Virus record (IMG/VR): IMGVR_UViG_3300001751_000003
Location: 1-56,835 of that record
Strand: one strand, 5' to 3'
Source: a virus
Taxonomy: Duplodnaviria; Caudoviricetes
DNA: 56,835 nt
Positions within the stretch are counted from its first letter, which is position 1. Each line of letters begins with the position of its first letter. The notes below the pieces were generated by a model. It had not been told where the DNA came from and did not search any database. It saw only the letters and a program-made list of their open reading frames with translations. Shown piece after piece: positions 9,541-50,621 of this stretch. The position numbers were made by a program, and so were the translations under genes.

Positions 9541-11040
9541 ATGGCATTTTTGCATCCAAAAAGTAATTTCCCACCAAAAGATTGGAATTTTTGGTTTCTA
9601 AAGTATAATGAATGGGCTGTTTGGTATTCTGGCGATCCACAGCAATTATTAGAATTTTATACAAAAACAGCCGCAGGAATTGATGGAACTAAAGAAAAGT
9701 TTTGGGCAAGATTAGAAGCCGAAGAAAGAAATGGAATAGTACATTTTCCATTAGCTGGTGATATTTGCGGAACTTCGGCGGATTTATTATTTTCTGAGAG
9801 TCCAATATTTAAATATGATGAAAAAGTTAAGGGAGGACAAAGACTAAATGATATTTTAGCTAAAAATGGTTTTAATAGTATTCTTTTGGAAGGTGCGGAA
9901 ATGTCTGCGGCTTTGTCAGGTTGTATTTTAAAGCTAGACATAGCACCACAATTGGAAAATGTACCAATTGTACACATTGTCAATCCATTACAGTTTATTC
10001 CGACGTTTTGGTGGGGAAGACTTTGGGAAGTATTGTTTTTTAGAATAGTAAAACAAACAGATAGTAAGATATATAGATTATTTGAGAATCGAAGAAGGGA
10101 AGGGAATTCACTTATAATAGAATTCAAGCTAAATGAAGGTACACATAATAAAGTTGGAAGAGAAGTTGATTTGGACTATTTATCGGAAACTCAAAATTTA
10201 AAACTATCTCAATTTACAGAATATAAAAACATGAATGGACTAGGTTGTGTTTATGTTCCAAACATGAGACCCAATAAATTGGATGTTGGAAATACTTTAG
10301 GAATAAATGATTATTCAGGCGAAATAAGTCTTTTAGATTCTCTGGACTTTGCATGGACAAGTTGGATGCGTGACATAGAGTTAGGAATGGGGCAAATTTT
10401 CGTTGATGAAGAATTACTCCATACATCAAAGACAGATGTTAATGGAACCGATGTATTCTTAAATAAATTTAGTAAATTTCAAAAATCATTTATTAAGCTT
10501 AACCTAACAAATTGGAAAATGGGTGGCGAGAGTGGCGCAAAGCCAATTGATGCGGTACAACTTGATATAAGAGTTGATGAACATATGAAAACATGTTCGG
10601 AGCTATCCCAGCATATAGTTAGTTTATGTGGATATTCACCACAAACATTTGGATTTGGAGACTTTGGGAATGCTCAATCTGGAACTGCATTAAAAATTAG
10701 GGAAAATAAGTCTCAGAAAACAAGATCAAAAAAGGAAAAATATTTTAGACCTGCAATATTGAAACTGATGGAACAAGCTCAAAATTTTGATAAGTCAAGT
10801 GGATTATCTTCTAACTATGAAAATGTTGATATGAGTGTAGAAATAGAAGATTCTATTATGACAGATAGCAAAGAAGTATCGGAAACAATCAGAAATTTAT
10901 ATCAGGCAAAGGCCATAAGCAATTACATGAAAGTAAAACTACAGCATCCCGATTGGGATGATATTAAAATAAATGAAGAAGTTGACAAGATCAATAAGGA
11001 AGAAGGAATAACAAGTGAAATAATAGAAACTGAGGTTTAG
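9541..11040 (+). CDS. Portal protein (SPP1 gp6/A118-like)
   Basis: Follows TerL; SADLLFSE, CGYSPQTFG, SGTALKIRE motifs; 499 aa. Confidence 0.85.
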   Translation: MAFLHPKSNFPPKDWNFWFLKYNEWAVWYSGDPQQLLEFYTKTAAGIDGTKEKFWARLEAEERNGIVHFPLAGDICGTSADLLFSESPIFKYDEKVKGGQRLNDILAKNGFNSILLEGAEMSAALSGCILKLDIAPQLENVPIVHIVNPLQFIPTFWWGRLWEVLFFRIVKQTDSKIYRLFENRRREGNSLIIEFKLNEGTHNKVGREVDLDYLSETQNLKLSQFTEYKNMNGLGCVYVPNMRPNKLDVGNTLGINDYSGEISLLDSLDFAWTSWMRDIELGMGQIFVDEELLHTSKTDVNGTDVFLNKFSKFQKSFIKLNLTNWKMGGESGAKPIDAVQLDIRVDEHMKTCSELSQHIVSLCGYSPQTFGFGDFGNAQSGTALKIRENKSQKTRSKKEKYFRPAILKLMEQAQNFDKSSGLSSNYENVDMSVEIEDSIMTDSKEVSETIRNLYQAKAISNYMKVKLQHPDWDDIKINEEVDKINKEEGITSEIIETEV

Positions 11041-11094: not shown

Positions 11095-11592
11095 ATGGAG
11101 GTTAAAATGAAAAAACAAAATGATGTTATAAAATTCAAATGGGAAACTGATAAAGAATATGAGTATAGGAATAATATTTATTTATTTTCTGATAAATTAA
11201 ATAAAATATTAGGAGATTTAGAAAATTTGGCAAAACAAAGCTTGCCGAATTATCAACCAATGCTCGACAAGATCAGAAGCAATTATGGCAGATTTATTAA
11301 ATTATTAGTTCCTGATTGTTATAAAGATTTTCATACCATTTATAAAAGCGGACTTGAATATTATATGAAAGGACTAGTAATTTTGGTTAATACTTTCATT
11401 GATAAAAAAGAAAACAAACTTCACGATAATGATAAAAATGTAATTGCTAAAATTACAAAAGCCGGTAATTTTTTTCAAGCTGGCGATGCATATTTTAGAA
11501 TTGCCAATACAAAGAATTTTGAATTATTTGAAAAACAACAAATAAAATATCATGAAGAACAAGAAAAACAAAAAAATAAGGTGAAGAAATGA
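11095..11592 (+). CDS. Hypothetical protein
   Basis: ORF with GGAGG RBS (likely start 11107), coupled to the minor capsid gene. Confidence 0.55.
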   Translation: MEVKMKKQNDVIKFKWETDKEYEYRNNIYLFSDKLNKILGDLENLAKQSLPNYQPMLDKIRSNYGRFIKLLVPDCYKDFHTIYKSGLEYYMKGLVILVNTFIDKKENKLHDNDKNVIAKITKAGNFFQAGDAYFRIANTKNFELFEKQQIKYHEEQEKQKNKVKK

Positions 11593-12767
11593 ACATTGAT
11601 AGATATGAAGATTACGGAAAAAATTTATATTTGTCTGCTCAAAATGTAGTTTTTGGAATGCTGATTGCTACAAAAAAATTACTAGAAAAAATAAATAATG
11701 ATCCCACAAATGTTACTAATTATAAAAAAGCGTATATTACAGAAGTCACAACAATTGCCAAAACATTCAATAAAGATTGGAAAAGTTGGGCAAACAAAGA
11801 TTTAGCAAAAGCATATATCGCAGGAATAAACCATGCAAAAGCAGATTTAAAATATAATAATTTATCTTTATCAATTATAAAGAGCATCAAAAATGGATCT
11901 TTTTTAATTGAAAGTCCACCACCAATTTCAATCCCAGCATTAAGCAGCGAGACTTTATCATTATTTAAAAATATATCTGAACATGTACCTTTCTATAAAA
12001 CTTTTAGAGATGCAGCATATTACAACTTAGATAATCAGCCAATTCAAATACTAAGAAAAGCTGAGGATATTTATCGAAATGCAGCTATACAAGCAGGTGA
12101 GAAGTATTTCAAAGAAGGTGATATTTACACAAGGATAAAATACTCTCAAGAAATGATGGATCAACTAGCAAAACAGGGAATTCAAACTATAACTTATAAA
12201 AATGGAGCAAAATATTCAATAGATACTTATTGCGAAATGGTCGGTCGTACTGTCTCAGGTAGATGCTCTTTACAGGCTAATTTAAATCGTTATTTTGAAA
12301 GCGGATTTACTTTGGTTGTTGTCTCTTCTCATTTTAGAGCTTGTGATCTATGCACTCCATACGAGGGCGTAACTTTAAGTATAGAACGTCATCCAGCCTA
12401 TGAAAGCGTGGATGATGCTGAAACACAGGGACTTTTTCATTGTAATTGTAAACATGATGTAAGTCTATGGTTTGAAGGTAAAGAACCATTGCCGCCACGA
12501 GTTGATCAAGCTGAACAACAATTAATTGACGAATATGGCTATAATGAAGCTCAAAAAATATCTTATAATGCTCAGTTAAGACAAAGAGCAATAGAACGAA
12601 ATATTCGCAATTGGAAAAGAAGATCAGTTGGAAGTCTTGATAATAATGTTAAAAATATTGCCGATAATAAAGTTAAATATTGGCAAAAAGAGCAAAGAGA
12701 ACATTTAAAAGATAATACGTTCCTTAATAGAAATTATGCTAGGGAACAAATTGGGAAGGCTCATTAA
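11589..12767 (+). CDS. Phage minor capsid protein (Phage_min_cap2 / gp7-like)
   Basis: VSSH..AC.LC.PYEG, GLFHCNCKH, QRAIERNIRNWK, RNYARE. Confidence 0.85.
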   Translation: MNIDRYEDYGKNLYLSAQNVVFGMLIATKKLLEKINNDPTNVTNYKKAYITEVTTIAKTFNKDWKSWANKDLAKAYIAGINHAKADLKYNNLSLSIIKSIKNGSFLIESPPPISIPALSSETLSLFKNISEHVPFYKTFRDAAYYNLDNQPIQILRKAEDIYRNAAIQAGEKYFKEGDIYTRIKYSQEMMDQLAKQGIQTITYKNGAKYSIDTYCEMVGRTVSGRCSLQANLNRYFESGFTLVVVSSHFRACDLCTPYEGVTLSIERHPAYESVDDAETQGLFHCNCKHDVSLWFEGKEPLPPRVDQAEQQLIDEYGYNEAQKISYNAQLRQRAIERNIRNWKRRSVGSLDNNVKNIADNKVKYWQKEQREHLKDNTFLNRNYAREQIGKAH

Positions 12768-14058: not shown

Positions 14059-15018
14059 ATGAATAAGTTTTATAAGAAAGTCCTAATAACAGGTGGAACA
14101 GGAACACTTGGCAAAGAACTTACAAAACAATTATTAAATAGTGATAAATATATCAAAAAAATTTATATTTATTCTAGAGATGAATATAAACAATCAGAAA
14201 TGAAAAAAGAATTTAAAAATAATCCAAAACTATCTTTTTTTATTGGTGATATAAGAGACAAAGATCGATTATATAGAGCATTTAATGAAATTGATTATGT
14301 AATACATGCAGCCGCTCAAAAGCATGTTCCTTCATGCGAATATAATCCTTTTGAAGCTGTTAAAACAAATGTTATTGGATCAGCAAATATAATTGATGCG
14401 GCTATTGACCAAAAAGTTAAAAAAGTTTTGACAATTTCAACTGATAAAGCTGTAAATCCTATAAATCTCTATGGTTGTACAAAAGCATGTATGGAAAAGA
14501 TGTTTATTGATGGAAATAATTATTCAGGTGATAATTCAACAATATTTTCGGTTGTAAGATATGGAAATGTTATTGGTTCTAGAGGTTCAGTAATTCCATT
14601 TTTCAAGAAAATAGCCAAAGAAGGTGGTAAGTTTCCTTTAACTGATTCCAAAATGACTAGATTTTGGACAACTGTAGACAATGCCGCAAAATTTGTATTA
14701 AGTTCTCTTGAATCTATGAAAGGTCAAGAAATATTTATACCTAAGTTACCCACTTTAAAAATAATTGATTTAATAAAAGCAATAAAAGAAAATGCTGAAA
14801 TAGATATTATAGGGCTAAGAAAAGGTGAAAAAATTCATGAAATATTAATCAGTTATGAAGAATCAAGAAATATAGTAATTTATGATGATTTTTACAAGAT
14901 TTCTTATAAAAAACTGCCAGAATCATGGATCAATCACAATCAATTTGAATATTCTAGTAGTAACAAAGATAATGTTTTGAGTATTGAAGAAATGAGGAAA
15001 ATGTTAAATGAATTGTAG
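14059..15018 (+). CDS. pseB: UDP-N-acetylglucosamine 4,6-dehydratase (inverting)
   Basis: ITGGTG, YSRDE.KQ, HAAAQKHVP.CEYNPFEAVKTN, STDKAVNPINLYG.TK, RYGNV.GSRGSVIPFF, MTRFW, GEKIHE. Confidence 0.92.
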   Translation: MNKFYKKVLITGGTGTLGKELTKQLLNSDKYIKKIYIYSRDEYKQSEMKKEFKNNPKLSFFIGDIRDKDRLYRAFNEIDYVIHAAAQKHVPSCEYNPFEAVKTNVIGSANIIDAAIDQKVKKVLTISTDKAVNPINLYGCTKACMEKMFIDGNNYSGDNSTIFSVVRYGNVIGSRGSVIPFFKKIAKEGGKFPLTDSKMTRFWTTVDNAAKFVLSSLESMKGQEIFIPKLPTLKIIDLIKAIKENAEIDIIGLRKGEKIHEILISYEESRNIVIYDDFYKISYKKLPESWINHNQFEYSSSNKDNVLSIEEMRKMLNEL

Positions 15019-15238
15019 GGAAATGACTCATGGAGAATTAAAAATTGAATTTAGTAAAAAATCTATTGAGAATGAAAACCTTAAAATTACTAATGAATTA
15101 TTATTAGATAATATAAAAAGATTAAGGGAACAAGTTCTTGAACTAGAACAAAGAAACAATGAATTAATCGATAGATTTAGTTCAATAAAAGAACAAGATG
15201 TCGAAAGAAAAAAGGAGAGAATCTTTAATAATGATTAA
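15008..15238 (+). CDS. Hypothetical coiled-coil protein
   Basis: 76-aa ORF overlapping the pseB stop and pseC start. Confidence 0.45.
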   Translation: MNCREMTHGELKIEFSKKSIENENLKITNELLLDNIKRLREQVLELEQRNNELIDRFSSIKEQDVERKKERIFNND

Positions 15239-16310
15239 TTATGCCAAACATTATATAGATTTTTATGATAAAGCGGAAATTTTATCCGTTTTGGATAGTA
15301 ATCATATAACTCAAGGACCAATGATTGAACGATTTGAAAAAGCTTTGACAGATTATACAGCTTATAATTATTGCAAAACTTTAAGCAGTGGAACTGCCGC
15401 CTTACATGCCGCATGTTATGCAATTGGCATTAAATCAGGTGATGAAGTAATTATTCCAACAATTTCATTTGTAGCTACTGCCAATTGTATAACTTATTGT
15501 GGGGGAAATCCTGTTTTTGCTGATATTGATCCAGATACACTTTTAATTGATATTGAGAGCATAAAAAAACATATAACATCTAAAACAAAGGCAATAATAT
15601 CAATGGATTATGCCGGTCAATTATGTGATTATAAAGCAATTAAAGAAATTTGTGATAAAAATAATTTATATTTCATAAGCGATTCTTGTCATTCATTTGG
15701 TGGAATCAATTATTTAGCTGAAAATCAAATCCCAGATATTGTTTGTTATTCATTCCATCCAGCAAAACACATAACAACAGGCGAGGGTGGAGCATGTTTA
15801 ACAAATAATTATATTTTTGATTTAACAATTAAAAGATTTAGAAATCATGGAAGAGATGAAAAGGGTATAATGCAACAACTAGGATTTAATTATAGAATGT
15901 CTGATATTAACGCCGCTTTGGGATTAAGTCAATTAGAAGATAAGCATCTTAAATTCACAAGTAAAAGATATAAAATCGTTGATAGATATGATCTTGAACT
16001 AAAATGTAGCAAGTTAAAGAACGTAGATAAAAGAATTCATGTTTATCATTTATATGTTATAAAAGTAAATAAAAGAAAAAAATTCATCGAATTCATGAGA
16101 AATAATGGAATTCAATGTGTTGTACATTTCAAACCAATTTACGAACATATGTATTATTTTAAAACTGAGTTAAATTATAGTTTAACTTATCCTAATACAG
16201 AAAAAATAAAAAATAATATAGTTAGTATACCATTATTTTATTCATTAATGGAAGCCGATCAAACTCATATTATTAATTGTATAAATAATTTTGTAAAAAT
16301 CAATGATTGA
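15231..16310 (+). CDS. pseC: DegT/DnrJ/EryC1/StrS PLP aminotransferase, PseC-like
   Basis: ITQGP, SSGTAALH, SFVATAN, DSCHS, SFHPAKHITTGEGG (catalytic Lys), LGFNYRMSD. Confidence 0.88.
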   Translation: MINYAKHYIDFYDKAEILSVLDSNHITQGPMIERFEKALTDYTAYNYCKTLSSGTAALHAACYAIGIKSGDEVIIPTISFVATANCITYCGGNPVFADIDPDTLLIDIESIKKHITSKTKAIISMDYAGQLCDYKAIKEICDKNNLYFISDSCHSFGGINYLAENQIPDIVCYSFHPAKHITTGEGGACLTNNYIFDLTIKRFRNHGRDEKGIMQQLGFNYRMSDINAALGLSQLEDKHLKFTSKRYKIVDRYDLELKCSKLKNVDKRIHVYHLYVIKVNKRKKFIEFMRNNGIQCVVHFKPIYEHMYYFKTELNYSLTYPNTEKIKNNIVSIPLFYSLMEADQTHIINCINNFVKIND

Positions 16311-16473
16311 TAAAATTAATAATTACTATGTTTTGGTTTGTGATGGTTGCGGTGAAAGTGAAAGTTTTGATTCATTTGAGGAAGCTGTTGACTTTGCTAA
16401 AAACAATGATTGGCAATTTAAAAAAGTAAATGGAGAATGGGAAAATTATTGTATTGATTGCAGTGAGGAATAA
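16303..16473 (+). CDS. Small zinc-finger protein (56 aa; below the ORF track cutoff)
   Basis: MIDKINNYYVLVCDGCGE...ENYCIDCSEE, two CxxC motifs. Confidence 0.6.
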   Translation: MIDKINNYYVLVCDGCGESESFDSFEEAVDFAKNNDWQFKKVNGEWENYCIDCSEE

Positions 16474-16481
16474 GAGAAATA

Positions 16482-16676
16482 ATGAAATTAATAATTTTTA
16501 TTATATTTACTTTGTTATATATATATGGAAATTATTCGTATATAAAAAAACATAAAAAATTGGAAAAACAAATAAAAGAATGGAGAATAAATTCAATGTT
16601 TGAAAAAGAAGGATATGAAAAGAATTTTGATTATGAAGAATTTAAGAAAATGAAAAAAAAATTAATAGTCTTATAG
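16482..16676 (+). CDS. Small membrane protein
   Basis: N-terminal hydrophobic helix. Confidence 0.4.
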   Translation: MKLIIFIIFTLLYIYGNYSYIKKHKKLEKQIKEWRINSMFEKEGYEKNFDYEEFKKMKKKLIVL

Positions 16677-16779
16677 AAGAAAATAGAAAATTAAAATATG
16701 AGAATGAATTTTTAATATCTAAGATGAATTTAATAAATTCTGTGGCTGATAATGCAATAAATTTTAGGGAGCAAAAATA

Positions 16780-17097
16780 ATGAAACCAAGTGATAGAAAT
16801 ATTAGAGAGTATCTTTTAAAGAAAGATTTAATCAAATTTTTAAATAAGAATCTATTAAAATATAACATTTCGCTTGTTGAGGAATTTGTTACTATTTTTA
16901 ATGGATTTAAGCATTATTCAATTATTTTAATAGATAATTCTTATGATGAATTTATTTATAATAGTAAAACAAAATCTTTATCTATTAGTAAAAACAAATC
17001 GAATTTAAATATAGAATATATACAAAAACATTTAAATGATTTACTGAAATTAGAAAACTATTTAAATAGTTTTTTTGAAGAAAAAAAATTAAAATAA
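16780..17097 (+). CDS. Hypothetical protein
   Basis: 105-aa ORF with GGGAG RBS. Confidence 0.45.
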   Translation: MKPSDRNIREYLLKKDLIKFLNKNLLKYNISLVEEFVTIFNGFKHYSIILIDNSYDEFIYNSKTKSLSISKNKSNLNIEYIQKHLNDLLKLENYLNSFFEEKKLK

Positions 17098-17116
17098 AAA
17101 AGGAGAATTTTTAATT

Positions 17117-17713
17117 ATGCAAAATGCAAGAAATTATAATAATGAATGGGAAAAATATTTTGGAATTAAAGAAATAGAGGCAATTCCAATGACTTATGGA
17201 GAATATCAAGAAATGAAATATAAGGATAATAAATTTATATCGTCTATACCCCAAGATAGTGAAGGATATGCTATAAAGTATGAAGATAATTATATTTCAT
17301 GGAGTCCAAAAAAAGCTTTCAGATTTTATAAGAAAATCAATGGTAATTTGTCAAAGGTTTCTTTAACTGATTTGGGGGAAGAATTATTAACGGAAGATCA
17401 TACCTATATAGTACATGACGAAATAGTTAATAATGCACCGCACAATTATTTAATAAGAAATAAAGATAATCATGATATTTTAGCAGGAATACATTTTCAA
17501 TGTGGTCATGTTAATGAAGTTGATTTAAACGGAATCTTTTTACCTGACATGATAGCCGTTTGCATTAATATGATAGAACATTTTCAAAATTCAGATTTTA
17601 AATGTAAAGAAAATGATATTGCAATAGATGGTTTGAAAGCGGCTATAACAGCATTAAGAGCAAGAACTAATAGCAGAAAAGAAAGAGGAGTGCATGGAAA
17701 ATTTGAAAAATAA
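17117..17713 (+). CDS. tad1: Two-domain protein: N-terminal phage domain (KxIEAxPMT...EGY...YISWSPK) fused to a Tad1-like anti-Thoeris sponge
   Basis: C-terminal APHNYLI...IHFQCG...NGI..D....FQ...F.CKEN..A...L..A...L..R...R.ERGVHG matches the Tad1 pattern as I recall it. Confidence 0.7.
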   Translation: MQNARNYNNEWEKYFGIKEIEAIPMTYGEYQEMKYKDNKFISSIPQDSEGYAIKYEDNYISWSPKKAFRFYKKINGNLSKVSLTDLGEELLTEDHTYIVHDEIVNNAPHNYLIRNKDNHDILAGIHFQCGHVNEVDLNGIFLPDMIAVCINMIEHFQNSDFKCKENDIAIDGLKAAITALRARTNSRKERGVHGKFEK

Positions 17714-17718
17714 AAGGA

Positions 17719-18384
17719 GTGATTATATTGAGTCAAATAATTCTAGACTTTGGTAGTGGAAATACATGTAAAAATGAATCAAAATATATAAAAAGAATGT
17801 ATGATGAATTAAAAAAAATTGATACTCATAAGCATGAAGTTATAATTAAATGGCAATTATTTAGTGTTTGTGGTGGAAATATTCCATTAACTAAAGAATG
17901 TTTTGAATATGCCTGTTATTATGGCGATCAATTAGGATATAAAACTACTTCATCCGTTTTTGATAGAGAGACATTGAAATATTTATTATTATTTGATGTT
18001 CCTTTCGTAAAAATACCAAACAGGAGACATTTGGATTATTTGATCGATCTTGTACCTGAACATGTACCTGTATATGTTTCAAAATCAAGTTTGCTTGAAA
18101 TACAACATGAAGTAAAAAACATTGAAGGATATGGCTGTTTTTCAGCTCCTAGAACAGAAATGGAACAACTTTGGTGTATAAGTAAATATCCAGCACAAAT
18201 ACGTGATTATGAAAAATTAAAAATGCAAAGATATGATAATATTTCGGATCATACAAATAGTTTTGATTTGTTTTATAGATATGAGCCGAAGATAATTGAA
18301 TGGCATTATAAATTGAAAGATTCTACTGGTTTAGATGCGAGTGAATTTGCTAGAACTCCAGAACAACTAAAGGAAATATTATAA
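17719..18384 (+). CDS. Minimal NeuB/PseI-family nonulosonic acid synthase lacking the C-terminal SAF domain
   Basis: KWQ, SSVFD, VKI, CISKYP, SDHT, IIEWHY, GLD...TPEQ echo NeuB motifs KFQ, STPFD, CxSxYP, SDHT, IEKH, GPD. Confidence 0.75.
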   Translation: MIILSQIILDFGSGNTCKNESKYIKRMYDELKKIDTHKHEVIIKWQLFSVCGGNIPLTKECFEYACYYGDQLGYKTTSSVFDRETLKYLLLFDVPFVKIPNRRHLDYLIDLVPEHVPVYVSKSSLLEIQHEVKNIEGYGCFSAPRTEMEQLWCISKYPAQIRDYEKLKMQRYDNISDHTNSFDLFYRYEPKIIEWHYKLKDSTGLDASEFARTPEQLKEIL

Positions 18385-19049
18385 TGATAATAACATTGAT
18401 TCAAGCAAGAATGAAAAGCACAAGATTTCCAAACAAGTGCATAAAAGATATGGCTGGTATACCTATGACAGCTTATACAATAGAAGCGGCGAAAGCAAGT
18501 AAATTAAATCATTTTACAGGTTTGATATTTCCTGATTGTGATAAGCAAACTTTTTTTAATTTATTTTTTGATAAATGTTTTTGTTATGCTAGTAAAGCAA
18601 AGGAAGAAGATGTATTAACTAGATATTATGAGGCATTTAAATATATAAATAAAACTACCAAAGAAAATATAAATACTGTAGTTAGAATAACATCCGATTG
18701 TCCAATGTTGGCTTTCTATACTAGAGTAATTGATGAAACCATAAACAAACATTTAATAAATAATGCGGATTATACTCATAATAGAGGAATTCATGGTTTC
18801 CCTAGTGGTTTAGACGTTGAAGTAATGAAAAGCAGTGTTTTACAATATGTTCACGAGACAGCAAAGGAAAAAGAAGATAGGGAACATGTAACCTTATTTA
18901 TAAAAAAACATCCTGAACAATTTAAAATACATGAAGTTAACGCAATATTTAATTTTGATTATAAATGGAGTGTAGATACTCCGGGAGATTTTGTAAGGGT
19001 TGAAGATATTATTAAAATATTAAAAATAAGGAGAAGATATGAACGATAA
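18384..19049 (+). CDS. SpsF/PseF-type cytidylyltransferase (CMP-nonulosonate synthetase)
   Basis: IQARM.STRFP.K, EEDVL.RY, VRITSDCP, FPSGLDVE, REHVT, SVDTPGD. Confidence 0.85.
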   Translation: MIITLIQARMKSTRFPNKCIKDMAGIPMTAYTIEAAKASKLNHFTGLIFPDCDKQTFFNLFFDKCFCYASKAKEEDVLTRYYEAFKYINKTTKENINTVVRITSDCPMLAFYTRVIDETINKHLINNADYTHNRGIHGFPSGLDVEVMKSSVLQYVHETAKEKEDREHVTLFIKKHPEQFKIHEVNAIFNFDYKWSVDTPGDFVRVEDIIKILKIRRRYER

Positions 19050-19581
19050 TATTTATTTAGATACATTAGAATCGGAAAATTTAGAAATGTTGAGACAATG
19101 GAGGAATAAAAATTCAAGATATGGTGTTTATAGAACGCCATATCTACTTACTTATAATATGCAAAGAAAATTCTTTGATGATATTGTTAATGATAGAAAA
19201 AGTAATTCAAGATTTTTTGGAATATTCTTGAAAGAAATGAACACTATAAAAACTTTTGTGGGTTATTGTGGTCTTGATAATATTCAGTGGGAGAATGGAT
19301 TAGCTGAAATTGCTTTAACAATTGGACAAAATTATATAGGAAAAGGTTATGGCTCGACAGCTTTAGAGCTTATTTTAATTGAAGCTTTTAATAATATGAG
19401 GATTTATAATGTTTATGGGGAATGTTATAATTGTAATCCAAATTTAGCATTTTGGGAAAAAATGATTGATAAATATAATGCATATAAGACAATTTTACCT
19501 GATAGAAAGTTCTATGATAATCATTTATGGGATTCTATCTATTTTGATTTTAATTATTATAATTGGAAAAATGAATTATGA
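19039..19581 (+). CDS. GNAT N-acetyltransferase, PseH-like
   Basis: LEMLRQWRN, VGYCGL, AEI...IG...GKGYG acetyl-CoA motif. Confidence 0.75.
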   Translation: MNDNIYLDTLESENLEMLRQWRNKNSRYGVYRTPYLLTYNMQRKFFDDIVNDRKSNSRFFGIFLKEMNTIKTFVGYCGLDNIQWENGLAEIALTIGQNYIGKGYGSTALELILIEAFNNMRIYNVYGECYNCNPNLAFWEKMIDKYNAYKTILPDRKFYDNHLWDSIYFDFNYYNWKNEL

Positions 19582-20252
19582 AGATAGTTATAGTTACTAT
19601 AAAAAATGTACATTTGGCGAATGCTGAAATAATGAGAAAATATTTTACTAATATGTTAGTAATCAATGATAAAGAATTTTTAACCTATAAAACTTTAAAA
19701 GAATATAATCCTAATTATGTGTTTTTTATTCATTGGTCATGGTATATTCCGGAAGAGATTTATAATAATTTTAATTGCATACTCTTTCATTGTGCGGATT
19801 TGCCACATGGAAGAGGTGGAAGTCCTATTCAAAATCAAATATTAGATGAAATTATTCATACAAAAATATGTGCAATTAAAATTGAAAAAAACATTGATTC
19901 AGGTGGAATTTATTTAAGTAAAGATATTTGTCTCAATGGAAGTTTAGATGAAATATTTATCAGAATATCAGATATTGTATTTAAAAAAATGATTCCAGAG
20001 ATAATTAATAATAATTTAAAAGCAATTAATCAGTATGGTGATCCTAAAATATATAAAAGACGAACTGATAATAAAATAAGAGAATCATTTAAATTAAATA
20101 AAATATATGATTTTATTAGGATGTTAGATGGTGATGGATATTCCAAAGCATATATTGAATATGGTAAATATAAGATTGAATTTTCACGAGCTGCCTTGAA
20201 AAATGATCATATAATTGCCGATGTAAAAATCAGGAGAAATGATAATGCATAA
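19578..20252 (+). CDS. Sugar N-formyltransferase (methionyl-tRNA formyltransferase-like)
   Basis: FFIHWSWYIP, FH..DLP.GRGGSPIQN, IDSG.IY, YDFIRMLD..GY..A. Confidence 0.85.
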   Translation: MKIVIVTIKNVHLANAEIMRKYFTNMLVINDKEFLTYKTLKEYNPNYVFFIHWSWYIPEEIYNNFNCILFHCADLPHGRGGSPIQNQILDEIIHTKICAIKIEKNIDSGGIYLSKDICLNGSLDEIFIRISDIVFKKMIPEIINNNLKAINQYGDPKIYKRRTDNKIRESFKLNKIYDFIRMLDGDGYSKAYIEYGKYKIEFSRAALKNDHIIADVKIRRNDNA

Positions 20253-20952
20253 TAATGTAATGGCTATAGTAGCTCATCCAGATGATGAGCTAATCGGCGT
20301 TGGAGGAACATTGATAAAACATGTAGAAAATGGAGATAGAGTAAGTGTATTAATTTTAGGAACTGGAATAAGTTCAAGATATGATATTTATGAAAATAAA
20401 GAAATAGAGCAATCAAGAGAAATATTCAAAAAAACTGATCAATTAAAAAGAATTTCTGAAAAGGTAGCAAAATATTTAAGATATAATGTTTATTTTGATA
20501 ATTTGATTGATCAAAGATTCGATATTATTCCATTGCTGGAAATTGTAAAAATAATTGAATCATGGATATTTTCAATTAAACCAAATATTGTTTATACGCA
20601 TAGTTACACTGATTTAAATATTGATCATAGATTAACTTTTGATGCAGTCCTAACAGCAACAAGACCATGTAATAATGATCAAGTAAAAAAAATATATGCT
20701 TTTGAAACTTTATCATCAACGGAATGGCAATTTCAGGATTCAAAAAGTTTTAAACCAAATTATTTTAATGCAATTTCACTTGATATATTAAATGAAAAAA
20801 TTGCGGCTTTAAGAATGTATAAGGATGAATTAAGAGAAAGTCCACATCCTAGAAGTATTGATAAAATAATAGATAAGGCTAGTGTTAATGGAAGTACAAT
20901 TTTAAAGCAATATGCCGAAGCTTTTGAAATAATAAGAATTATAAAAGATTAA
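20239..20952 (+). CDS. PIG-L/LmbE family deacetylase
   Basis: AHPDDE..GVGGT, D.NIDH, ETLSSTEW, PHPRS, AEAF. Confidence 0.9.
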   Translation: MIMHNNVMAIVAHPDDELIGVGGTLIKHVENGDRVSVLILGTGISSRYDIYENKEIEQSREIFKKTDQLKRISEKVAKYLRYNVYFDNLIDQRFDIIPLLEIVKIIESWIFSIKPNIVYTHSYTDLNIDHRLTFDAVLTATRPCNNDQVKKIYAFETLSSTEWQFQDSKSFKPNYFNAISLDILNEKIAALRMYKDELRESPHPRSIDKIIDKASVNGSTILKQYAEAFEIIRIIKD

Positions 20953-20962
20953 GGAGAAAACA

Positions 20963-21796
20963 ATGGCAAGAAGAATACCAATAAAAGTAAAAAGAATAAA
21001 TTATTTTAAACATGCTTTTTTTTATTCAAATTATCTAAAAGGAAAAAATATTATTATAATTGGTCCTAGTGATATTTTAAATGGAACCAAACAAGGAAAA
21101 AAGATTGATAGTTATGATATTGTTGTAAGACTTAATAATACATTTCCAATAAATCCATTACATGAAGATTATTCGGATATACATGAAGATATTGGAAATA
21201 GAACAGACATATTATATCATACAGGAGCAATTATGCGTTCCTTAAAATGGGCGGCAAATAGATATAATACAGGTAGAATTAAATTATTAGATAGAGACAA
21301 GATAAAATGGATTGTTGCAAAACGTGATCCAGTCTATGGAGCCGAAAAAGAAAGAAGGGCATTAAATAGATTTGTATTATTAAATAGAAAATATGTTGCC
21401 GCAGAAAAGACAAAAGGAATAACCCTAAATACTGTTTTTGATTTCTTTGTAAATGATTTAAGAGAAAAACTTGATGGAACTGAGCCAAACATGTCAACAA
21501 TTGCAATTATGCACTTATTAGAATTTAATATTAAATCATTAGAAATATTAGGGTGTGATTTCTATTCTGGATCATATCATAAAAGTTATTTTATTCCTGA
21601 TTATTTAGAATGGGATAATTTAAATAAAGTATTAATAAGAAAAGATGGACAAAAAAGAAAAACACCACAAGCACCACATGATTATAAAAGACAAATTAAA
21701 TTTTTACTTAATGTTTTTGAAAATGATAAAAGAGTAATTATTGATAATGCAACAATAGAATTATGGAAGGAAAAATTAAAAGATGAAAAAATATGA
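20963..21796 (+). CDS. GT29 (sialyltransferase-like) glycosyltransferase
   Basis: Sialylmotif-L-like IIIIGPS..L.G...G.KIDSYDIVVRLN...P...EDIG.RTD; S-like PNMSTIAI..LL...L.ILGCDFY; later H..Y and HD motifs. Confidence 0.65.
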   Translation: MARRIPIKVKRINYFKHAFFYSNYLKGKNIIIIGPSDILNGTKQGKKIDSYDIVVRLNNTFPINPLHEDYSDIHEDIGNRTDILYHTGAIMRSLKWAANRYNTGRIKLLDRDKIKWIVAKRDPVYGAEKERRALNRFVLLNRKYVAAEKTKGITLNTVFDFFVNDLREKLDGTEPNMSTIAIMHLLEFNIKSLEILGCDFYSGSYHKSYFIPDYLEWDNLNKVLIRKDGQKRKTPQAPHDYKRQIKFLLNVFENDKRVIIDNATIELWKEKLKDEKI

Positions 21797-22379
21797 TATA
21801 AATAATGGAACATTAGAAGATTGTCTCAAATATTGGGCAAATCCTGACAGAATAAACGAGCCTATCACATATAATGCGGAAAATACACTTGAAAGAAGTG
21901 AATTATTATTAGAATTATTTGAAAAATTCAAGATATTTAAAAATGATAAAATTCTTGAAATAGGTTGTAATTGTGGTAGAAATTTAAATTATTTGAGTCA
22001 ACATGGATATAAATGGTTAACTGGTATTGATATAAATAAAAAAGCTTTAGAACTGCAAAAAGAATTATTTCCTGATTTGAAAGTAAATTTGATACATGAC
22101 TCAATAGAACATAGTATTCCTAATTTTTACAATTCCCAATTCGATGTAATTTTTTCTATAGCAGTCTTACAGCATATACACATTGAAAGTAATTGGATAT
22201 TTGGTGATATAGCAAGAATAACAGAGGGATATTTATTTTTAATTGAGCTTGAGGCAAGAGATTATGAAAGCATATTTAAGGATAGAGGATTTGAATTAAT
22301 ATATTCTGAAAAATGTAATAATACTAAATATTTTAAGGAGTATAGAATATACGTTTTTAGAAGGTGTAAATATGATTGA
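21783..22379 (+). CDS. Class I SAM-dependent methyltransferase
   Basis: ILEIGCNCGRNL, GIDIN, FDVIFSIAVLQH. Confidence 0.85.
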   Translation: MKKYDINNGTLEDCLKYWANPDRINEPITYNAENTLERSELLLELFEKFKIFKNDKILEIGCNCGRNLNYLSQHGYKWLTGIDINKKALELQKELFPDLKVNLIHDSIEHSIPNFYNSQFDVIFSIAVLQHIHIESNWIFGDIARITEGYLFLIELEARDYESIFKDRGFELIYSEKCNNTKYFKEYRIYVFRRCKYD

Positions 22380-23076
22380 TGTAATTTATTTAACTGGTGG
22401 AATAGGTAAAAGAGCAAATTTAGGATATCCTAAACAATATGCTAGGTTAAAAGGTAAACCTATAATGATATATGGATTGGAAACTTTAAGTAAAATCGAA
22501 GAAATTGGGAATATTTTAATTTCTTGTGACACTGATAATTCACATGTTATTGATATTATTTCAAATTATGATTTTGATAATATTGTATTGTCAAAATCCA
22601 AGGAAACTCGTCAAGAATCAATTTATAATGAATTGAAACATATCAATACTAATCAAGTCTTGATATGTGAGAGTGTAAGACCTTTTATGAGTGAAAAATT
22701 AGTAAGAAAAGTTATTAATATGGATAGTGATTGTGTTATTCCAATTGATTATTCTTTGGCAACTGTTGTTGATATATTGGGAAATACTTTTGAAAGACAG
22801 GACATAGGGTGCGTTCAAATGCCACAAAAATATAATACTGAAAAATTATTAAAAGTTCATGAATTTATGAATGCTAAAAATGAAACTTGTACGGATGATT
22901 ACGACTTGATATCTAAATATAGATTTATGCATGGGGAAAAATCATTTAGTCAATTTCCTTTTAATCGAAGAGTCGTTTTTCATGGAGAAATAGAGAATAT
23001 CAAAATTACTTATCCTATTGATCTTAAGATTGCAGAAGCTATTTTAAATTATATGGAAGGTGGTTTTCTTGAATAG
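22372..23076 (+). CDS. IspD/TarI-family cytidylyltransferase (CDP-ribitol/alditol synthase)
   Basis: L.GGIGKR....PKQY, TRQES, ESVRPF, QMPQ, TDD, NIKITYP.DL. Confidence 0.85.
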   Translation: MIDVIYLTGGIGKRANLGYPKQYARLKGKPIMIYGLETLSKIEEIGNILISCDTDNSHVIDIISNYDFDNIVLSKSKETRQESIYNELKHINTNQVLICESVRPFMSEKLVRKVINMDSDCVIPIDYSLATVVDILGNTFERQDIGCVQMPQKYNTEKLLKVHEFMNAKNETCTDDYDLISKYRFMHGEKSFSQFPFNRRVVFHGEIENIKITYPIDLKIAEAILNYMEGGFLE

Positions 23077-23716
23077 TATAATTATAACTGGCTCTAGTCG
23101 TGGAATAGGTGCGGCAATTGCTAAACAATGGTGTAAAAGAAATAAAAACAATTTATATTATGCAATTTCAAAATATAATGATTTTGATGTTACAAACTTC
23201 AAACAATTCGAGAAATGTATTAAAGATTTTTATGATTTTGAAAGTGATTATTACCTTCCATATGCATTAATAAATAATGCAGGAGTAGCCGAACAAGGAA
23301 ATATATTAGAAATAGATATTGATTCAATTGATAGACAATTTAATGTAAATTTTAAAGCTGTTGTAAATTGTACTCAACAGTATGCAAAATTTTGTATCAA
23401 GAAAAAAATAAAAGGTAAAATAATTAATATTTGTTCTACTGCTGGACTTGGAGCAAGACCTGGGCGATCGATTTATGCAGCCTCCAAAGCGGCTTTGATT
23501 AATTTCAGCTTATCAATGTCGGAAGAATTAAAACCGTACGGAATAAAAGTTTATTGCATATGTCCTTCCGCTGTAAATACAGATATGAGACGTTTTCTTG
23601 AGCCTGATGATAATTTTGAAAATATGCTACAACCTGAGGAAGTCGGAACATTTGTTTGTGATTTAATTGAAAATGGAAAATATTTAGACAATCATATTTT
23701 GGAGGTTAAGAAATAG
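23060..23716 (+). CDS. SDR oxidoreductase (probable ribulose-5-P reductase partner, as in Bcs1)
   Basis: ITGSSRGIG, NNAG, YAASK catalytic motif; adjacent to the IspD/TarI gene. Confidence 0.8.
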   Translation: MVFLNSIIITGSSRGIGAAIAKQWCKRNKNNLYYAISKYNDFDVTNFKQFEKCIKDFYDFESDYYLPYALINNAGVAEQGNILEIDIDSIDRQFNVNFKAVVNCTQQYAKFCIKKKIKGKIINICSTAGLGARPGRSIYAASKAALINFSLSMSEELKPYGIKVYCICPSAVNTDMRRFLEPDDNFENMLQPEEVGTFVCDLIENGKYLDNHILEVKK

Positions 23717-23717
23717 A

Positions 23718-24833
23718 ATGAAAATTTTAAATAAGGCACATTATACAATAGAAATAGATGGAATTACTTTTAAACCTTTTAAAGAAATAGAAATAACAAA
23801 AATTTCCGATCTCACATTACGTAAAATGAGAATGAATAGAAGCTTAAGGATTGGAAAAACAAATAATCAAAGTTATATTGAAAGACATGGACTTATTGAT
23901 GGAAATAGAATTAACTTTGTTTACGATAATCTTAACCAGCACGCCGGAGCTAGTTATGTTGGAGCAATACAGACTTTGGCAAATCCAATAATGAAACATA
24001 TGTCAGATAAAATGATTGGATATACTAAGCATCCGCTAACTGGAATGAATGTAAGATTTTTTAATAGTGCTAGAATAAACGAACAAGGAAAAGCCCCAGT
24101 AGGACCCCATGATTTATTTTTTTCTCATGGAATAGGTGATAAAAATTATTGGAAAGGCTCAAAGATAAAAGATTACAAATATGTTTTTGTTCCGGGACCC
24201 GCTTGGGAAAAGAGAATGAGGAATACTGGGTATAAAGGCGAAATCTTTATTTGTGGATATACTAAATTAGACCCGATAATAGGAAAGGAACCAATTAAGA
24301 AAAATTCTAAGCCGACAATAGTTTGGGCGCCTACTCATGGATATCATTCTAAAAATAGGGGAAGATCAAGTTTTCCAATGTTTCAAAAATATTTGAATAA
24401 AATTCCAAAGGATTTTAATCTGGTTACAACTTTACATCCAACTACTAGAATGCATAGAAAAGAAAAATTATCACCAATTGAAATCTTGTTAAATGCTGAT
24501 ATTATAATTGCGGATGCTGGATCAACACTTTACGAAGCATGGATATTAGGAAAACCAGTTATTTTTCCTGATTGGATTTGTTGTAAAGATGTATTAAATC
24601 ATTTTAAAGGTGATACTGCAAACTTTGAATATCAGATTTATTCAAAAAAGATAGGCTATCATGCAAAAAGCATGGAACATATGATCAAATTATTTGATAT
24701 TGCTTTAAATGATGGTATGAGAGACTTGGAAAAAGAATTTATTGAGGATATTTATCCTTCAGATATTAGAGGAAAAGCCGGAGAAATAGCCGCAAAACAA
24801 ATTTTGGAATTGGCAGATAGATTGAAAATATGA
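23718..24833 (+). CDS. TagF/TarF-like CDP-alditol phosphotransferase family protein
   Basis: SHGIGDK, GYTKLD, IVWAPT, LHP, ADIIIAD.GST.YE...LGKPVIF. Confidence 0.7.
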   Translation: MKILNKAHYTIEIDGITFKPFKEIEITKISDLTLRKMRMNRSLRIGKTNNQSYIERHGLIDGNRINFVYDNLNQHAGASYVGAIQTLANPIMKHMSDKMIGYTKHPLTGMNVRFFNSARINEQGKAPVGPHDLFFSHGIGDKNYWKGSKIKDYKYVFVPGPAWEKRMRNTGYKGEIFICGYTKLDPIIGKEPIKKNSKPTIVWAPTHGYHSKNRGRSSFPMFQKYLNKIPKDFNLVTTLHPTTRMHRKEKLSPIEILLNADIIIADAGSTLYEAWILGKPVIFPDWICCKDVLNHFKGDTANFEYQIYSKKIGYHAKSMEHMIKLFDIALNDGMRDLEKEFIEDIYPSDIRGKAGEIAAKQILELADRLKI

Positions 24834-28683: not shown

Positions 28684-29667
28684 ATGGCTACAAGTATACC
28701 AAGGGCTGGTGTTGAAACATTAATGCCTGAAGAATATCAAAGAGAAATTATTGAAAGTGTACCCGAACAAAGTGTCGTTATGACTCTTGGCAATAGAGCG
28801 CCTGACATGTCTAGGGCGCAAAGAAGGATTCCATGTTTATCTGTTTTGCCTACAGCATATTTTTCAAATCCTGGTCCCTCAACTGTAGATGAAGAAGATC
28901 AATGGAAACAATTAACTGATATCATGTGGGAAAATAAATATATTGATGCCGAGGAACTCAATGTCATGGTAGCAATACCAGAGGCAGTCTTTGATGATGC
29001 TGATTATGACATTTGGGCTGAGGCAAGACCTAAATTGATTGAAGCTTTCGGAAAAGCTTTCGATCAAGCAGTATTTTACGGAGTAAATGCTCCATCTATA
29101 TGGCCCGATAATATTGTTATGGCAGCTACAGCCGCAAATAACTTCGTTACGATAGGAAGCATTGGCACTGATATATTCGACGATATTATGGCAGAGGGTG
29201 GAATAATATCAAAAGTTGAAGAAGATGGATTTATGGTAAACGGACATGCTTTATCAATGAATATGAGGTCTAAATTGAGAGGTTTAAGAGATAGTCAAGG
29301 AAATCCTGTCTTTAAGGCACTAACTAAAGAAGGAGTCCAAGGAGCCACAAATTATATGCTTGATGGGGAACCATGTTATTTCCCTAGAAATGGATCAATT
29401 ATAAGGACAAAATCTCTTGATATCTGTGGAGATTGGAGTCAATTGATGTATGCTATTCGTAAAGATGTTACTTGGAAAATCTTGACGGAAGCAGTTATTC
29501 AAAATCCAACAACCAAAGCAATAGTTTATAACCTTGCACAACAAAATATGATTGCTCTTAGAGCTTCAATGAGACTTGGATGGCAAGTGCCTAATCCAAT
29601 AAATCGCCTCAATACTGACGAGGACACACGTTATCCATTTGCAGTATTGGGAGAAGAGGCAAGCTAA
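28684..29667 (+). CDS. Major capsid protein (HK97 fold)
   Basis: LMPEE...EII, AFGKAFDQA, LRGLRDSQG.P, GDWS, NL.QQNMIALRA.MR.G. Confidence 0.9.
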   Translation: MATSIPRAGVETLMPEEYQREIIESVPEQSVVMTLGNRAPDMSRAQRRIPCLSVLPTAYFSNPGPSTVDEEDQWKQLTDIMWENKYIDAEELNVMVAIPEAVFDDADYDIWAEARPKLIEAFGKAFDQAVFYGVNAPSIWPDNIVMAATAANNFVTIGSIGTDIFDDIMAEGGIISKVEEDGFMVNGHALSMNMRSKLRGLRDSQGNPVFKALTKEGVQGATNYMLDGEPCYFPRNGSIIRTKSLDICGDWSQLMYAIRKDVTWKILTEAVIQNPTTKAIVYNLAQQNMIALRASMRLGWQVPNPINRLNTDEDTRYPFAVLGEEAS

Positions 29668-36000: not shown

Positions 36001-36218
36001 GTCCAATTAAAAAATCTCTAGAAAAAGCCGATACTTTAATTTCCGGTGATTTCTTGGGAAATTTACTATTAAATAAAGAGCCTTTATCTATTTCGGAAAC
36101 AGCAACAACAAAGGCAGTGACATTTAGTGGCGATTTTAATTTTAATGGAATTCAAGATATAGCTGATTTTATGCGACAAATGAAAGAATTTTTAAGAAGG
36201 CAAGGAGGTAAATTTTAA
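33096..36218 (+). CDS. Tape measure protein (TP901-like)
   Basis: 1040 aa, Ala/Gly/Ile-rich, FEAEMSKV, Trp/Phe-spaced repeats, PFSPAKEGPL. Confidence 0.92.
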   Translation: MFIVGRVTAPIDADTNPFLNGLNTAFGAGASFSSKISSHLKGVGTSITNFGQSLTKFITVPLAAGVLAAAKFGKDFEAEMSKVVGLVGVSQKQVNSWKSEILALSPEIAKPPQELAEAMFYVTSAGLRGAEALDVLKMSGKASAAGLGETKTIADLVTSAINAYGSENLTAAQATDIMVAAVREGKAEASDLASTMGAVLPLASELGVTFDQVAATQAAMTKTGTNAAEAATQLKSIMSGLIKPSKQAEEQLKKMGTSSSEMRKKIKDEGLLQALMDLREMTNKYGEEAMARVFPNIRALMGVLDLMGNNLESNKKTFDAVKNSTGSLDKAFQAASETLDFRWNAALSAIQSNLIKFFDVIKGVIVPVLEKFVQGLNFVGNAFQSLTPFQQKLTLAFAGMAAIIGPIIMAIGTSIGILGGIIGGVSTVLALLGTVFASISIPIMAAIGIITTLGTAFIGLILSSESVRNAIKEKFTSIGAKIKEVASFIQIHSNDIKNAFKGLFEGIATGNFGNFINAMKNMIPPEAMTKIHNIVIKFVEFRDKLISIRDKIIGFKDNFVSAFNSIKEKVSSVVGAIVGTISGFVDLIRAGFSNVKETITKSFAGFDFSAIKRAFDGIKATMGPVITVFKAIGIVIGTVLAVVIGIVVGLFNGIVKAIDNVIAAIMNVISFIAGALGVIVGLFTGNWKLVDESFQNMWNSVLEFFSNIVIAIWDLVSGFVEGIIDFFTGLYEKLVGGSIVPDMINGIIQWFTELPGKVFEIVSSFIMSIVNYFLDLQVKIINTLLSLLKSSIDTWKNIKSKAIALIIALVLDAINRFNTFKSNLSTIWTNIKSKISSIWESVKSKVVSIAKNLISDTKSNFNNLLSSLSSIMSNIKSKMSSAWSSVKSKAINAIKEMVTGVKNKISGLASSAYSSGMSIVNGIKNGINAAANGTITAMKNLVKKLRDLLPFSPAKEGPLKDLDKLNFAGPIKKSLEKADTLISGDFLGNLLLNKEPLSISETATTKAVTFSGDFNFNGIQDIADFMRQMKEFLRRQGGKF

Positions 36219-49684: not shown

Positions 49685-50172
49685 TCATATTAATTGATTC
49701 TAGAGAAAAGGAGAACAGCCATATATTAAATTATATGGCTGTTAATAAAATATCGGTTAAAAGAAAACAAACATTAAAATTCGGTGATTATTCATTTATT
49801 GATCATAACACAGATTATAGAAATTTGATTGTAATTGAAAGAAAAAATAGTCTTGATGAATTAGCTCTAAATTTAACTTCAGGTAAAAAAGATAATCCTG
49901 TTAATCGTAGGGAACGATTCAAAAATGAATTTAAAAGAGCTAAAGAAGCAGGAGCTAAAATGGTTCTTTTAATTGAAAATGCTACTCAAGAAGATATAAA
50001 AGAGCATAATTATAGATCAAAATTACATCCGAATGCATTCATAGGATCATTAAATTCTTGGTATAATAAAGGATATATTGACAATATTTTCTTTTGTCAA
50101 GACAAGAATGATGCAGGATGGGCAATGTTAAAGATTTTTAAACAATACCTTAATTTATATGTTAGTAAATAA
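49681..50172 (+). CDS. ERCC4-domain nuclease (resolvase-like)
   Basis: IDSREK, L.FGDY, IERK..LDEL, RF..E..R. Confidence 0.85.
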   Translation: MIILIDSREKENSHILNYMAVNKISVKRKQTLKFGDYSFIDHNTDYRNLIVIERKNSLDELALNLTSGKKDNPVNRRERFKNEFKRAKEAGAKMVLLIENATQEDIKEHNYRSKLHPNAFIGSLNSWYNKGYIDNIFFCQDKNDAGWAMLKIFKQYLNLYVSK

Positions 50173-50184
50173 TTACCAAATCAA

Positions 50185-50213
50185 TTGACAAAATACGTTC
50201 CACGTAGTATAAT
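50185..50213 (+). promoter_or_regulatory. Consensus sigmaA early promoter, copy 3
   Basis: TTGACA-17-TATAAT within TTCCACGTAGTATAATTATAGTATA. Confidence 0.85.
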
Positions 50214-50256
50214 TATAGTATAAAGAAATAAAATTTAAAATTCTTAGGAGGAAACT

Positions 50257-50406: not shown

Positions 50407-50430
50407 TTTATATTAAAGGAATAAGAGCAA

Positions 50431-50613: not shown

Positions 50614-50621
50614 CAAAAATT

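Follow-up and report, generated by a model that had tools for sequence, protein, structure and literature searches.

Proteins of the Tad1 family block the type I Thoeris and CBASS (cyclic-oligonucleotide-based antiphage signalling system) defences (10.1101/2025.08.24.671296). In CbTad1 (Clostridium botulinum prophage; PDB 7UAV/7UAW/8SMD), residues F82, N92, R109 and R113 line a pocket common to glycocyclic ADP-ribose (gcADPR) and 2',3'-cyclic GMP-AMP (2',3'-cGAMP), and binding of both ligands is lost upon the F82A/N92A and R109A/R113A substitutions. Cyclic trinucleotides occupy a separate site at the interface of the trimer of dimers (R90/T97 in CbTad1, equivalent to R88/T95 in CmTad1 from Clostridioides mangenotii; PDB 8KBB/8KBC/8KBD), which acts independently of gcADPR binding, and the contacts in the CmTad1 hexamer include M102, W103 and K106 (10.1101/2023.11.15.567273). 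Here we describe an open reading frame (ORF) from the phage genome IMGVR_UViG_3300001751_000003, analysed as a window of 56,835 bp that spans the whole record, whose product is predicted to join a sponge domain of this family to an N-terminal module (hereinafter, the N-module).

The only characterised homologue of the N-module belongs to gp68 of Pectobacterium phage vB_PatP_CB1, named 'RyR Tad', whose RyR-like C-terminal domain binds gcADPR. In the gp68 crystal, the N-terminal domain forms a domain-swapped dimer, strand beta1 entering the partner and completing its five-stranded sheet. When fragment 1-86 was assayed on its own against type I Thoeris, no activity was apparent (10.64898/2026.06.04.730250). 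It is also known that sponges can be fused with each other, as Tad2-Acb4, Tad2-Sequestin and Sequestin-Acb4 fusions have been reported (10.1101/2025.07.12.664507), Sequestin being the family PF21825, and Acb4, PF13876 (10.1101/2025.07.12.664507; 10.1101/2024.12.30.630793). A large survey of Tad1, Tad2 and Acb2 dropped homologues with extra domains, including those with PF21825 or a 'PDB 6E3C' domain (10.1101/2025.08.24.671296), the latter entry being phage L Dec. The accessible text of 10.1101/2025.07.12.664507, 10.1101/2024.12.30.630793, 10.1101/2025.08.24.671296 and the EVADES preprint contains neither a Tad1 fusion nor a function of the N-module, though the supplementary tables may list some. 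We regard the combination of the N-module with Tad1 as an architecture new to the Tad1 sponge family; Tad1 itself and fused sponges were already known.

The features of the ORF, which is single-copy in the virus record (self-match E = 2.4e-138), are as follows.

17117..17713, + strand: putative two-module anti-defence ORF, 198 amino acids (aa) plus stop, ATG start (ORF list)
17100..17105, + strand: Shine-Dalgarno sequence AAGGAG, 11 nt ahead of the ATG, read from the sequence
17150..17341, + strand: N-module, residues ~12-75; phrog_9467 match, homologue of the gp68 N-terminal domain, without a Pfam family
17342..17380, + strand: linker, residues ~76-88, gapped and variable in relatives (alignment columns 77-95)
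17381..17704, + strand: Tad1-family sponge domain, residues ~89-196; antiparallel beta-sheet, then a two-helix hairpin
17582..17677, + strand: codons of the predicted gcADPR/cyclic-dinucleotide pocket, plus K164 and D171 (CbTad1 alignment)
Pocket codons, + strand: F156, 17582-17584; N166, 17612-17614; R183, 17663-17665; R187, 17675-17677

Homology of the C-terminal domain to Tad1

A sequence-only reading of this DNA had proposed a likeness between the C-terminal part of the protein and Clostridium Tad1, and the database searches agree with it. In the phmmer comparison with PDB, the protein matched CmTad1 (8kbb_A) with E = 3.3e-12 over residues 89-196 and CbTad1 (7uav_A) with E = 5.3e-5; for the profile of 21 relatives the corresponding values were 1.4e-30 and 8.9e-18. 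Residues 83-197 also matched phrog_2428 (E = 1.1e-26). The scan of Pfam and NCBIfam with the whole protein and with each half yielded no families, PF24729 included, while a precomputed match to PF24729 is present in 21 of 21 relatives (the family name, 'Acb2_Tad1_hairpin', comes from the Atlas structure search).

The full-length AlphaFold2 (AF2) model, built on the 21-sequence alignment, has a mean predicted local distance difference test score (pLDDT) of 80.0, dropping to 68 in the residue block 81-90, that is, in the linker. The C-terminal domain is modelled with strands at residues 96-100, 111-115 and 121-125 and long helices at 142-156 and 164-189. The best Foldseek match in PDB was the CmTad1 chain 8kbd_L (E = 4.8e-7, template modelling (TM) score 0.81 by target, root-mean-square deviation 2.0 over 127 columns), and the CbTad1 chain 7uaw_A had a TM score of 0.73 by target, with probability 1.00 for both. 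All 20 matches at E<=1e-3 were CmTad1 or CbTad1 chains, the next match having E = 0.49. The Tad1 fold, whose absence would have spoken against the assignment, was thus found in the C-terminal domain, and we conclude that, by homology, residues ~89-196 are a genuine Tad1-family sponge domain.

The motifs that had been read off the C-terminal part are present in the translation (A107-x-H109-x-Y111-x-I113; I125-x-F127-Q128-x-G130; F156-Q157-x3-F161-x2-K164-E165-N166-x2-A169; R183-x3-R187-x-E189-R190-x-V192-x-G194), all but one: the motif 'G+..D' is inexact, as the stretch from G139 to D144 is one residue longer and has no basic residue. The N-terminal motif string of the same reading was found as well, in the form K13-Y-F-G-I-K-E-I-E-A-I-P-M-T-Y-G-E-Y30, followed by E49-G-Y51, Y55 and Y59-I-S-W-S-P-K-K-A-F68.

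Ligand sites and oligomer contacts

Since the chain index equals the residue number plus one in the phmmer alignment, F82, N92, R109 and R113 of CbTad1 correspond to F156, N166, R183 and R187 of the ORF product. Each of these residues is invariant in 21 of 21 relatives, so the Phe, Asn and Arg residues of the pocket are indeed kept. The binding of gcADPR is predicted to be retained, and possibly that of cGAMP-type ligands too.

The positions of the trinucleotide site are occupied here by K164 and D171, Arg being found in two of the 21 relatives and Thr also in two. In place of the hexamer contact Met-Trp-x-x-Lys, the protein has Thr-Ala-x-x-Ala (T178, A179, A182), and Trp is present in five of 21 relatives. 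Judging from the alignment, the trinucleotide site has most likely been lost, unlike in CmTad1 and CbTad1, and the classical homo-hexamer (trimer of dimers) may not form. This loss leaves the membership in Tad1 standing, as binding of trinucleotides is an additional activity that some Tad1 proteins have. If the gcADPR pocket is kept and the trinucleotide site shed, the family would be a natural test of separating the two Tad1 functions and the hexamer.

The N-terminal module

The N-module matches phrog_9467 over residues 12-91 (E = 1.2e-13) and phrog_872 over residues 5-73, while no Pfam or NCBIfam family was found for it, and there was no Pfam match even at E<=10. The full HMMER scan of residues 1-80 against 1.84 billion representatives yielded 325 proteins or clusters at E<=1e-3; the word-index search with the same residues was insensitive, returning only the three closest relatives among four candidates. 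By homology, this is a widespread phage module. We analysed the best 150 of the 325 matches; the alignment of 149 proteins is this set with the query added and two very long sequences removed, namely P0023 (1676 aa) and P0087 (1306 aa), which fail the N-module profile. Each of these two has three to four repeated partial matches to residues 36-77 (phmmer), and they may carry a short repeated motif similar to the conserved segment rich in Tyr and Trp. Positions Y14, K18, Y51, Y55, Y59, S61, W62, S63 and P64 are near-invariant across the family.

The homology to gp68 was observed both pairwise and by profile: residues 2-62 of gp68 align with residues 9-68 of the ORF product at 34% identity (BLASTP, E = 4e-7), and the hidden Markov model of the N-module family matches gp68 residues 4-69 with E = 5.3e-18. 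The BFVD search with the N-only model also retrieved the RyR-domain protein of Yersinia phage TG1 (probability 1.00). The AF2 model of residues 1-80 has a pLDDT of 88.8. Residues 12-15 form the first strand in the full-length model and not in the N-only monomer model; this difference would fit a swappable strand, but is not evidence for it. Complex prediction for two copies of residues 1-80 gave scores of 0.37, 0.36 and 0.39, the threshold being 0.42 and the controls scoring 0.00-0.02, and we count it neither way. There was no usable PDB match for the module with either the single sequence or a 53-sequence profile, and no PDB fold for the N-only model at E<=1e-3 (best Foldseek E = 1.9); the gp68 structure is absent from the PDB copies used for these searches.

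The Pfam scan of the 149 N-module proteins identified PF11195 (Tad2-like) in 32, PF21825 in 31 and PF13876 in nine. As PF11195 lies downstream of the N-module in these 32 proteins, the joining of this domain to DUF2829/Tad2 in phages, stated in the sequence-only reading, holds. The N-module comes first and the sponge domain after it in all ten proteins with Pfam coordinates, for instance, in P0025 (N-module 2-66, Tad2 66-145), P0030 (N-module, Acb4 77-149) and P0031 (N-module, Sequestin 69-129, Tad2 142-234). The same order is observed in 76 of 76 ORFs with two or three modules among the best 80 of 415 viral loci, and in crAssphage gp41, Clostridium phage CP51 gene 007 and Bacteroides phage BF1-TP2 gp46. 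The architectures in the best 150 matches are distributed as follows.

N-module alone: 52, stand-alone proteins of 56-110 aa
N-module-Sequestin: 21
N-module-Tad2: 20
N-module plus unknown: 17
N-module-Acb4: 8
N-module-Sequestin-Tad2: 7
N-module-Tad1: 3, one with a further unknown stretch
Rarer forms: 22

For the best 80 of the 415 viral-contig relatives, the counts were 24 for N-module-Sequestin-Tad2, 19 for N-module-Sequestin, 18 for N-module-Tad2, ten for N-module-Acb4 and five for N-module-Tad1. Two loci (L018:3896-4773 and L037:3420-4459) carry a two-gene version of a multi-sponge set, in which the stop of a stand-alone Tad1 gene overlaps or abuts the start of an N-module-Acb4 gene immediately after it.

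We also considered whether the N-module could be a cryptic copy of a known sponge. The hhalign probabilities were 0.9% for Tad2 (34-sequence alignment), 0.4% for Sequestin, 0.1% for Acb4 and 0.0% for a second Tad1, and these candidates were rejected; the Foldseek probability for SPO1 Tad2 was 0.11-0.21, and the Atlas structure search again gave no relation to known sponges. Lockin is an unlikely identity, since its authors found none in complete INPHARED genomes, while the N-module is present in 37 INPHARED records; this comparison is by reported distribution, not by sequence. The 6E3C-like extra domain mentioned in 10.1101/2025.08.24.671296 may be the N-module. In the direct comparison, hhalign gave probabilities of 1.5% for Dec and 1.2-4.3% for a 44-sequence Dec alignment, with the same 35-residue segment each time, and for the N-only model there was no Dec chain among the 44 Foldseek PDB matches listed, all at E = 1.9 or worse, and no decoration-protein name among the 50 BFVD matches listed.

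Spread of the fusion

The full architecture was found by the word-index search in at least 21 clusters (176-199 aa, 38-100% identity, 91-100% query coverage). Both halves are conserved across these clusters, which suggests selection on the whole fusion. The Atlas contains a cluster of 193-aa proteins (121 members) with the N-module and PF24729. Full-length relatives reside in contigs of metagenome-assembled genomes (MAGs) assigned to Ignavibacteria (62% identity, a 58-kb contig), Oscillospiraceae, Faecousia, Eubacteriales, Planctomycetaceae and Bacillota. Among isolate phages, none of the 135 records with a Tad1-like match covered at least 80% of the query.

Four viral contigs show the gene in different surroundings. 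In L006 (62% identity), the fusion gene occupies the same place in the same sugar cluster as here, whereas L007:2548-3138 lies between the terminase and portal genes, L008:4007-4558 follows a terminase gene, and in L009 the gene is near an exonuclease gene. L007 and L008 are unrelated viral contigs, where the gene is in the packaging block, outside the early region. As the contexts in L007, L008 and L009 differ, the sugar context is a trait of the phage lineage, not of the protein family.

Genomic context

The window (G+C ~25%) is a complete record with direct terminal repeats (CheckV estimate 100%). It has portal, head and tape-measure genes along with replication genes (helicase/exonuclease and primase-helicase), and we assign it to a siphovirus-type phage because of this gene set. 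No near-identical phage was found for the window, and the portal protein is only ~33% identical to Streptomyces phage portals. The most closely related contig sits in the bin of an Ignavibacteria MAG, and could be a mis-binned phage. There are no tRNA genes in the window. Near 50 kb, the GC skew and the gene orientation flip (window 50000-56835), the primase-helicase and its neighbours lying on the minus strand, so that the genome consists of two arms that diverge or converge. The genes relevant for the locus are listed below.

9541-11040: portal, structural gene
11589-12767: minor head protein, structural gene
14059-15018: PseB-type dehydratase (PF02719), upstream of the ORF
15198-16310: DegT aminotransferase, upstream of the ORF
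16780..17097, + strand: third small ORF, 105 aa, possibly travelling with the sponge gene (homologue in L006)
17719-18384: NeuB-like gene, downstream of the ORF
18384-19049: cytidylyltransferase, downstream of the ORF
Further downstream, to 23716: GNAT, formyltransferase-C, PIG-L deacetylase, GT29-like (sialyltransferase-like), methyltransferase, IspD-like (second cytidylyltransferase) and SDR (short-chain dehydrogenase/reductase) genes
28684-29667: major head protein, capsid gene
33096-36218: tape measure, structural gene

The sugar cluster (window 14059-24833) comprises 11 genes, separates the head-assembly genes from the capsid gene, and is of the nonulosonic-acid (pseudaminic/legionaminic) type; its presence suggests that the phage glycosylates virion proteins or modifies the host surface. 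The ORF had been said to be hidden in this cluster, and it is indeed flanked by the DegT aminotransferase and NeuB-like genes. The NeuB-like ORF is short (221 aa, GTG start), covering only profile positions 53-225 of 241, with no SAF domain match. As L006 keeps a 222-aa form, 66% identical, it may be a functional truncation rather than insertion debris.

Three small ORFs are situated between the aminotransferase and the sponge gene (window 16303-17097). One (56 aa) is Cys-rich with two CxxC pairs and matches phrog_17873 (E = 8.6e-6), and another (64 aa) has a hydrophobic N-terminus. The 105-aa ORF has a 121-aa homologue directly upstream of the L006 fusion gene (38% identity, E = 1e-13); it could not be placed in a firm family, the PHROG matches having E>=0.03 and the Atlas leads being weak and HEPN-like (scores 0.90-0.92). 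Taken together, the three ORFs and the sponge gene resemble a small accessory insertion within the sugar operon. Terminator-like sites in the 13-26 kb region numbered 3 against 2.1 expected.

Proposed function and alternatives

We consider it probable that the ORF encodes a two-module counter-defence protein, in which a Tad1 sponge is combined with an N-terminal dimerisation brace. The C-terminal domains would pair into dimers, with interface pockets trapping the Thoeris signals made by TIR (Toll/interleukin-1 receptor) proteins, 1''-3' and 1''-2' gcADPR (3'cADPR and 2'cADPR); the same pocket may also trap cGAMP-type cyclic dinucleotides, as in CbTad1. Trapping of the signal would keep the host effector off. 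The N-module, if it resembles that in the gp68 structure, would be a strand-swapped dimerisation brace joining two sponge units, not an active sponge. The gene looks like a small insert in the pseudaminic-acid-type sugar operon within the head-gene block, and it has its own strong ribosome-binding site.

Several observations weigh against the combination of a sponge and a brace. The sponge function, for this protein and for every N-module-Tad1 fusion, is predicted, and the loss of the trinucleotide site and the hexamer is judged from eight aligned positions. The gene is located among late-looking structural and sugar genes, outside an early anti-defence island, and no promoter of its own stood above background in the scan of 13-26 kb (113 promoter-like sites vs 107 +/- 10 expected). 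In the accessible account of gp68, the N-terminal fragment was tested against one system only, type I Thoeris. The share of stand-alone N-modules (52 of 150) and the near-invariant polar and aromatic residues are easier to reconcile with an autonomous function than with a mere brace.

If the N-module were autonomous, the protein could be a bifunctional sponge, as was proposed from the sequence. The N-module would then bind a different immune signal, such as that of CBASS, Pycsar, type II/IV Thoeris or type III CRISPR, or a Panoptes decoy. Stated more widely, the module would be an autonomous binder of signal or decoy nucleotides, represented by at least 325 clusters (50% identity), of which one third are small proteins made of the module alone. 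Its recognisable partners are almost only sponge families (Tad2, Sequestin, Acb4, Tad1, RyR Tad), similar guilt-by-fusion logic led to Sequestin (10.1101/2025.07.12.664507), the stand-alone forms are in the size class of known sponges, the near-invariant positions are Tyr, Trp, Lys and Ser among others, and the double sponges Acb4-Tad2 and Acb4-Sequestin are known to work. On the other hand, the gp68 N-terminal fragment was inactive on type I Thoeris and dimerised in the crystal (10.64898/2026.06.04.730250), the module has no homology to known sponges detectable by hhalign, by PDB sequence or by PDB fold at E<=1e-3, and the most common form in the viral loci, N-module-Sequestin-Tad2 (24/80), is more suggestive of a common adaptor than of a third specificity. 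Since the gp68 fragment was inactive, though against a single defence system, we regard a second sponge as possible but less likely than a brace, and rate it, in the narrow and the wide form alike, as rather doubtful. Were it true, phages would build two- and three-way sponges, the ORF product would block Thoeris and a second pathway, and the N-module would be a further large sponge family, placed ahead of Tad1, Tad2, Sequestin, Acb4 and RyR domains.

Two other explanations start from the position of the gene. The N-module, which may be remotely related to the capsid-binding OB (oligonucleotide/oligosaccharide-binding) domain of Dec, might bring Tad1 to the capsid or procapsid, for packaged delivery or late co-production. 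The gene is in the head or packaging block here, in L007 and in L008, though in L009 it adjoins an exonuclease gene. An extra domain matching 6E3C (phage L Dec) was noted on sponge homologues (10.1101/2025.08.24.671296), but the likeness of the N-module to Dec is not established, with hhalign at 1.2-4.3% and no Dec among the structure matches listed, and domains of the Dec type attach to the outer face of the capsid, which stays outside the cell. The protein gp184 of phage phiKZ, which has a Tad1-like hairpin, sits on the inner capsid surface (PMC11297242), and Tad1 homologues from Lactococcus phage 1706 (orf71) and Bacillus phages are labelled 'structural protein', so some Tad1-like proteins may be virion-associated; these labels, however, are unverified annotation. 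The labelled homologues are stand-alone proteins, at L167:2429-2782 (phage 1706 orf71), at L168:1899-2285 (Bacillus phage QCM8) and in several Bastille-like Bacillus phages. We hold virion association of the ORF product to be very unlikely. Less likely still is a role as an accessory of the sugar pathway, the Tad1-like pocket binding a nucleotide-sugar or a pseudaminic-type intermediate and the gene being functionally a part of the operon. The gene is tightly spaced in the operon, and in L006 it is placed likewise, the enzymes on either side being 58-80% identical to those here. However, the L007, L008 and L009 loci have no sugar genes of the kind seen in the window nearby, the four residues kept in the pocket are precisely the ones with which CbTad1 binds gcADPR or cGAMP, and the accessible Tad1 literature reports no such role for Tad1 relatives. 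As the sugar context is confined to the phage lineage, the protein is unlikely to be functionally linked to sugar synthesis.

Comparison with known systems

CmTad1 and CbTad1 share both fold and family with residues ~89-196. The ORF product differs from them in the additional N-terminal module of ~75 residues with the linker, and the identity of its C-terminal domain to CmTad1 is only ~27-28% in the structural alignment. Acb2 has PF24729 in common with Tad1 and with the 21 relatives; unlike Acb2, the ORF product has the Tad1-type beta-sheet in the AF2 model, and Acb2 chains appeared neither at E<=1 in the PDB profile search nor at E<=1e-3 in Foldseek. The C-terminal residues 153-227 of phiKZ gp184 (PDB 8Y6V chain I) match the Tad1-type hairpin (E = 5.4e-7 by phmmer, 2.5e-11 by profile). 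This 230-aa protein differs in having no N-module and no reported sponge role, being a minor capsid protein of the inner vertex complex and inner capsid surface that is cut by the head protease (PMC11297242).

In RyR Tad gp68, a homologous N-module likewise precedes a gcADPR-binding sponge domain, and the lengths are similar (183 vs 198 aa). The sponge domain of gp68, however, is all-helical, RyR Repeat12-like and unrelated to Tad1, and its gene adjoins the DNA primase gene in an N4-like anti-signalling hotspot (10.64898/2026.06.04.730250), whereas the ORF described here is in a sugar and head block.

The fused sponges of 10.1101/2025.07.12.664507 and the Acb4-Sequestin protein gp59 of phage Ab09 follow the same principle, signal-binding modules being joined in one short protein, and the N-module heads many such proteins (N-module-Tad2, N-module-Sequestin, N-module-Acb4 and N-module-Sequestin-Tad2). 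In the ORF product, only one of the two modules is of a proven sponge type, and the accessible text on the fused sponges gives the N-module no name. The N-module is among the commonest partners of five sponge families, with one solved and functionally silent example, gp68. Knowledge of its role, be it a brace, an avidity device, a second sponge or a targeting tag, would account for a design rule that is widespread in phage counter-defence.

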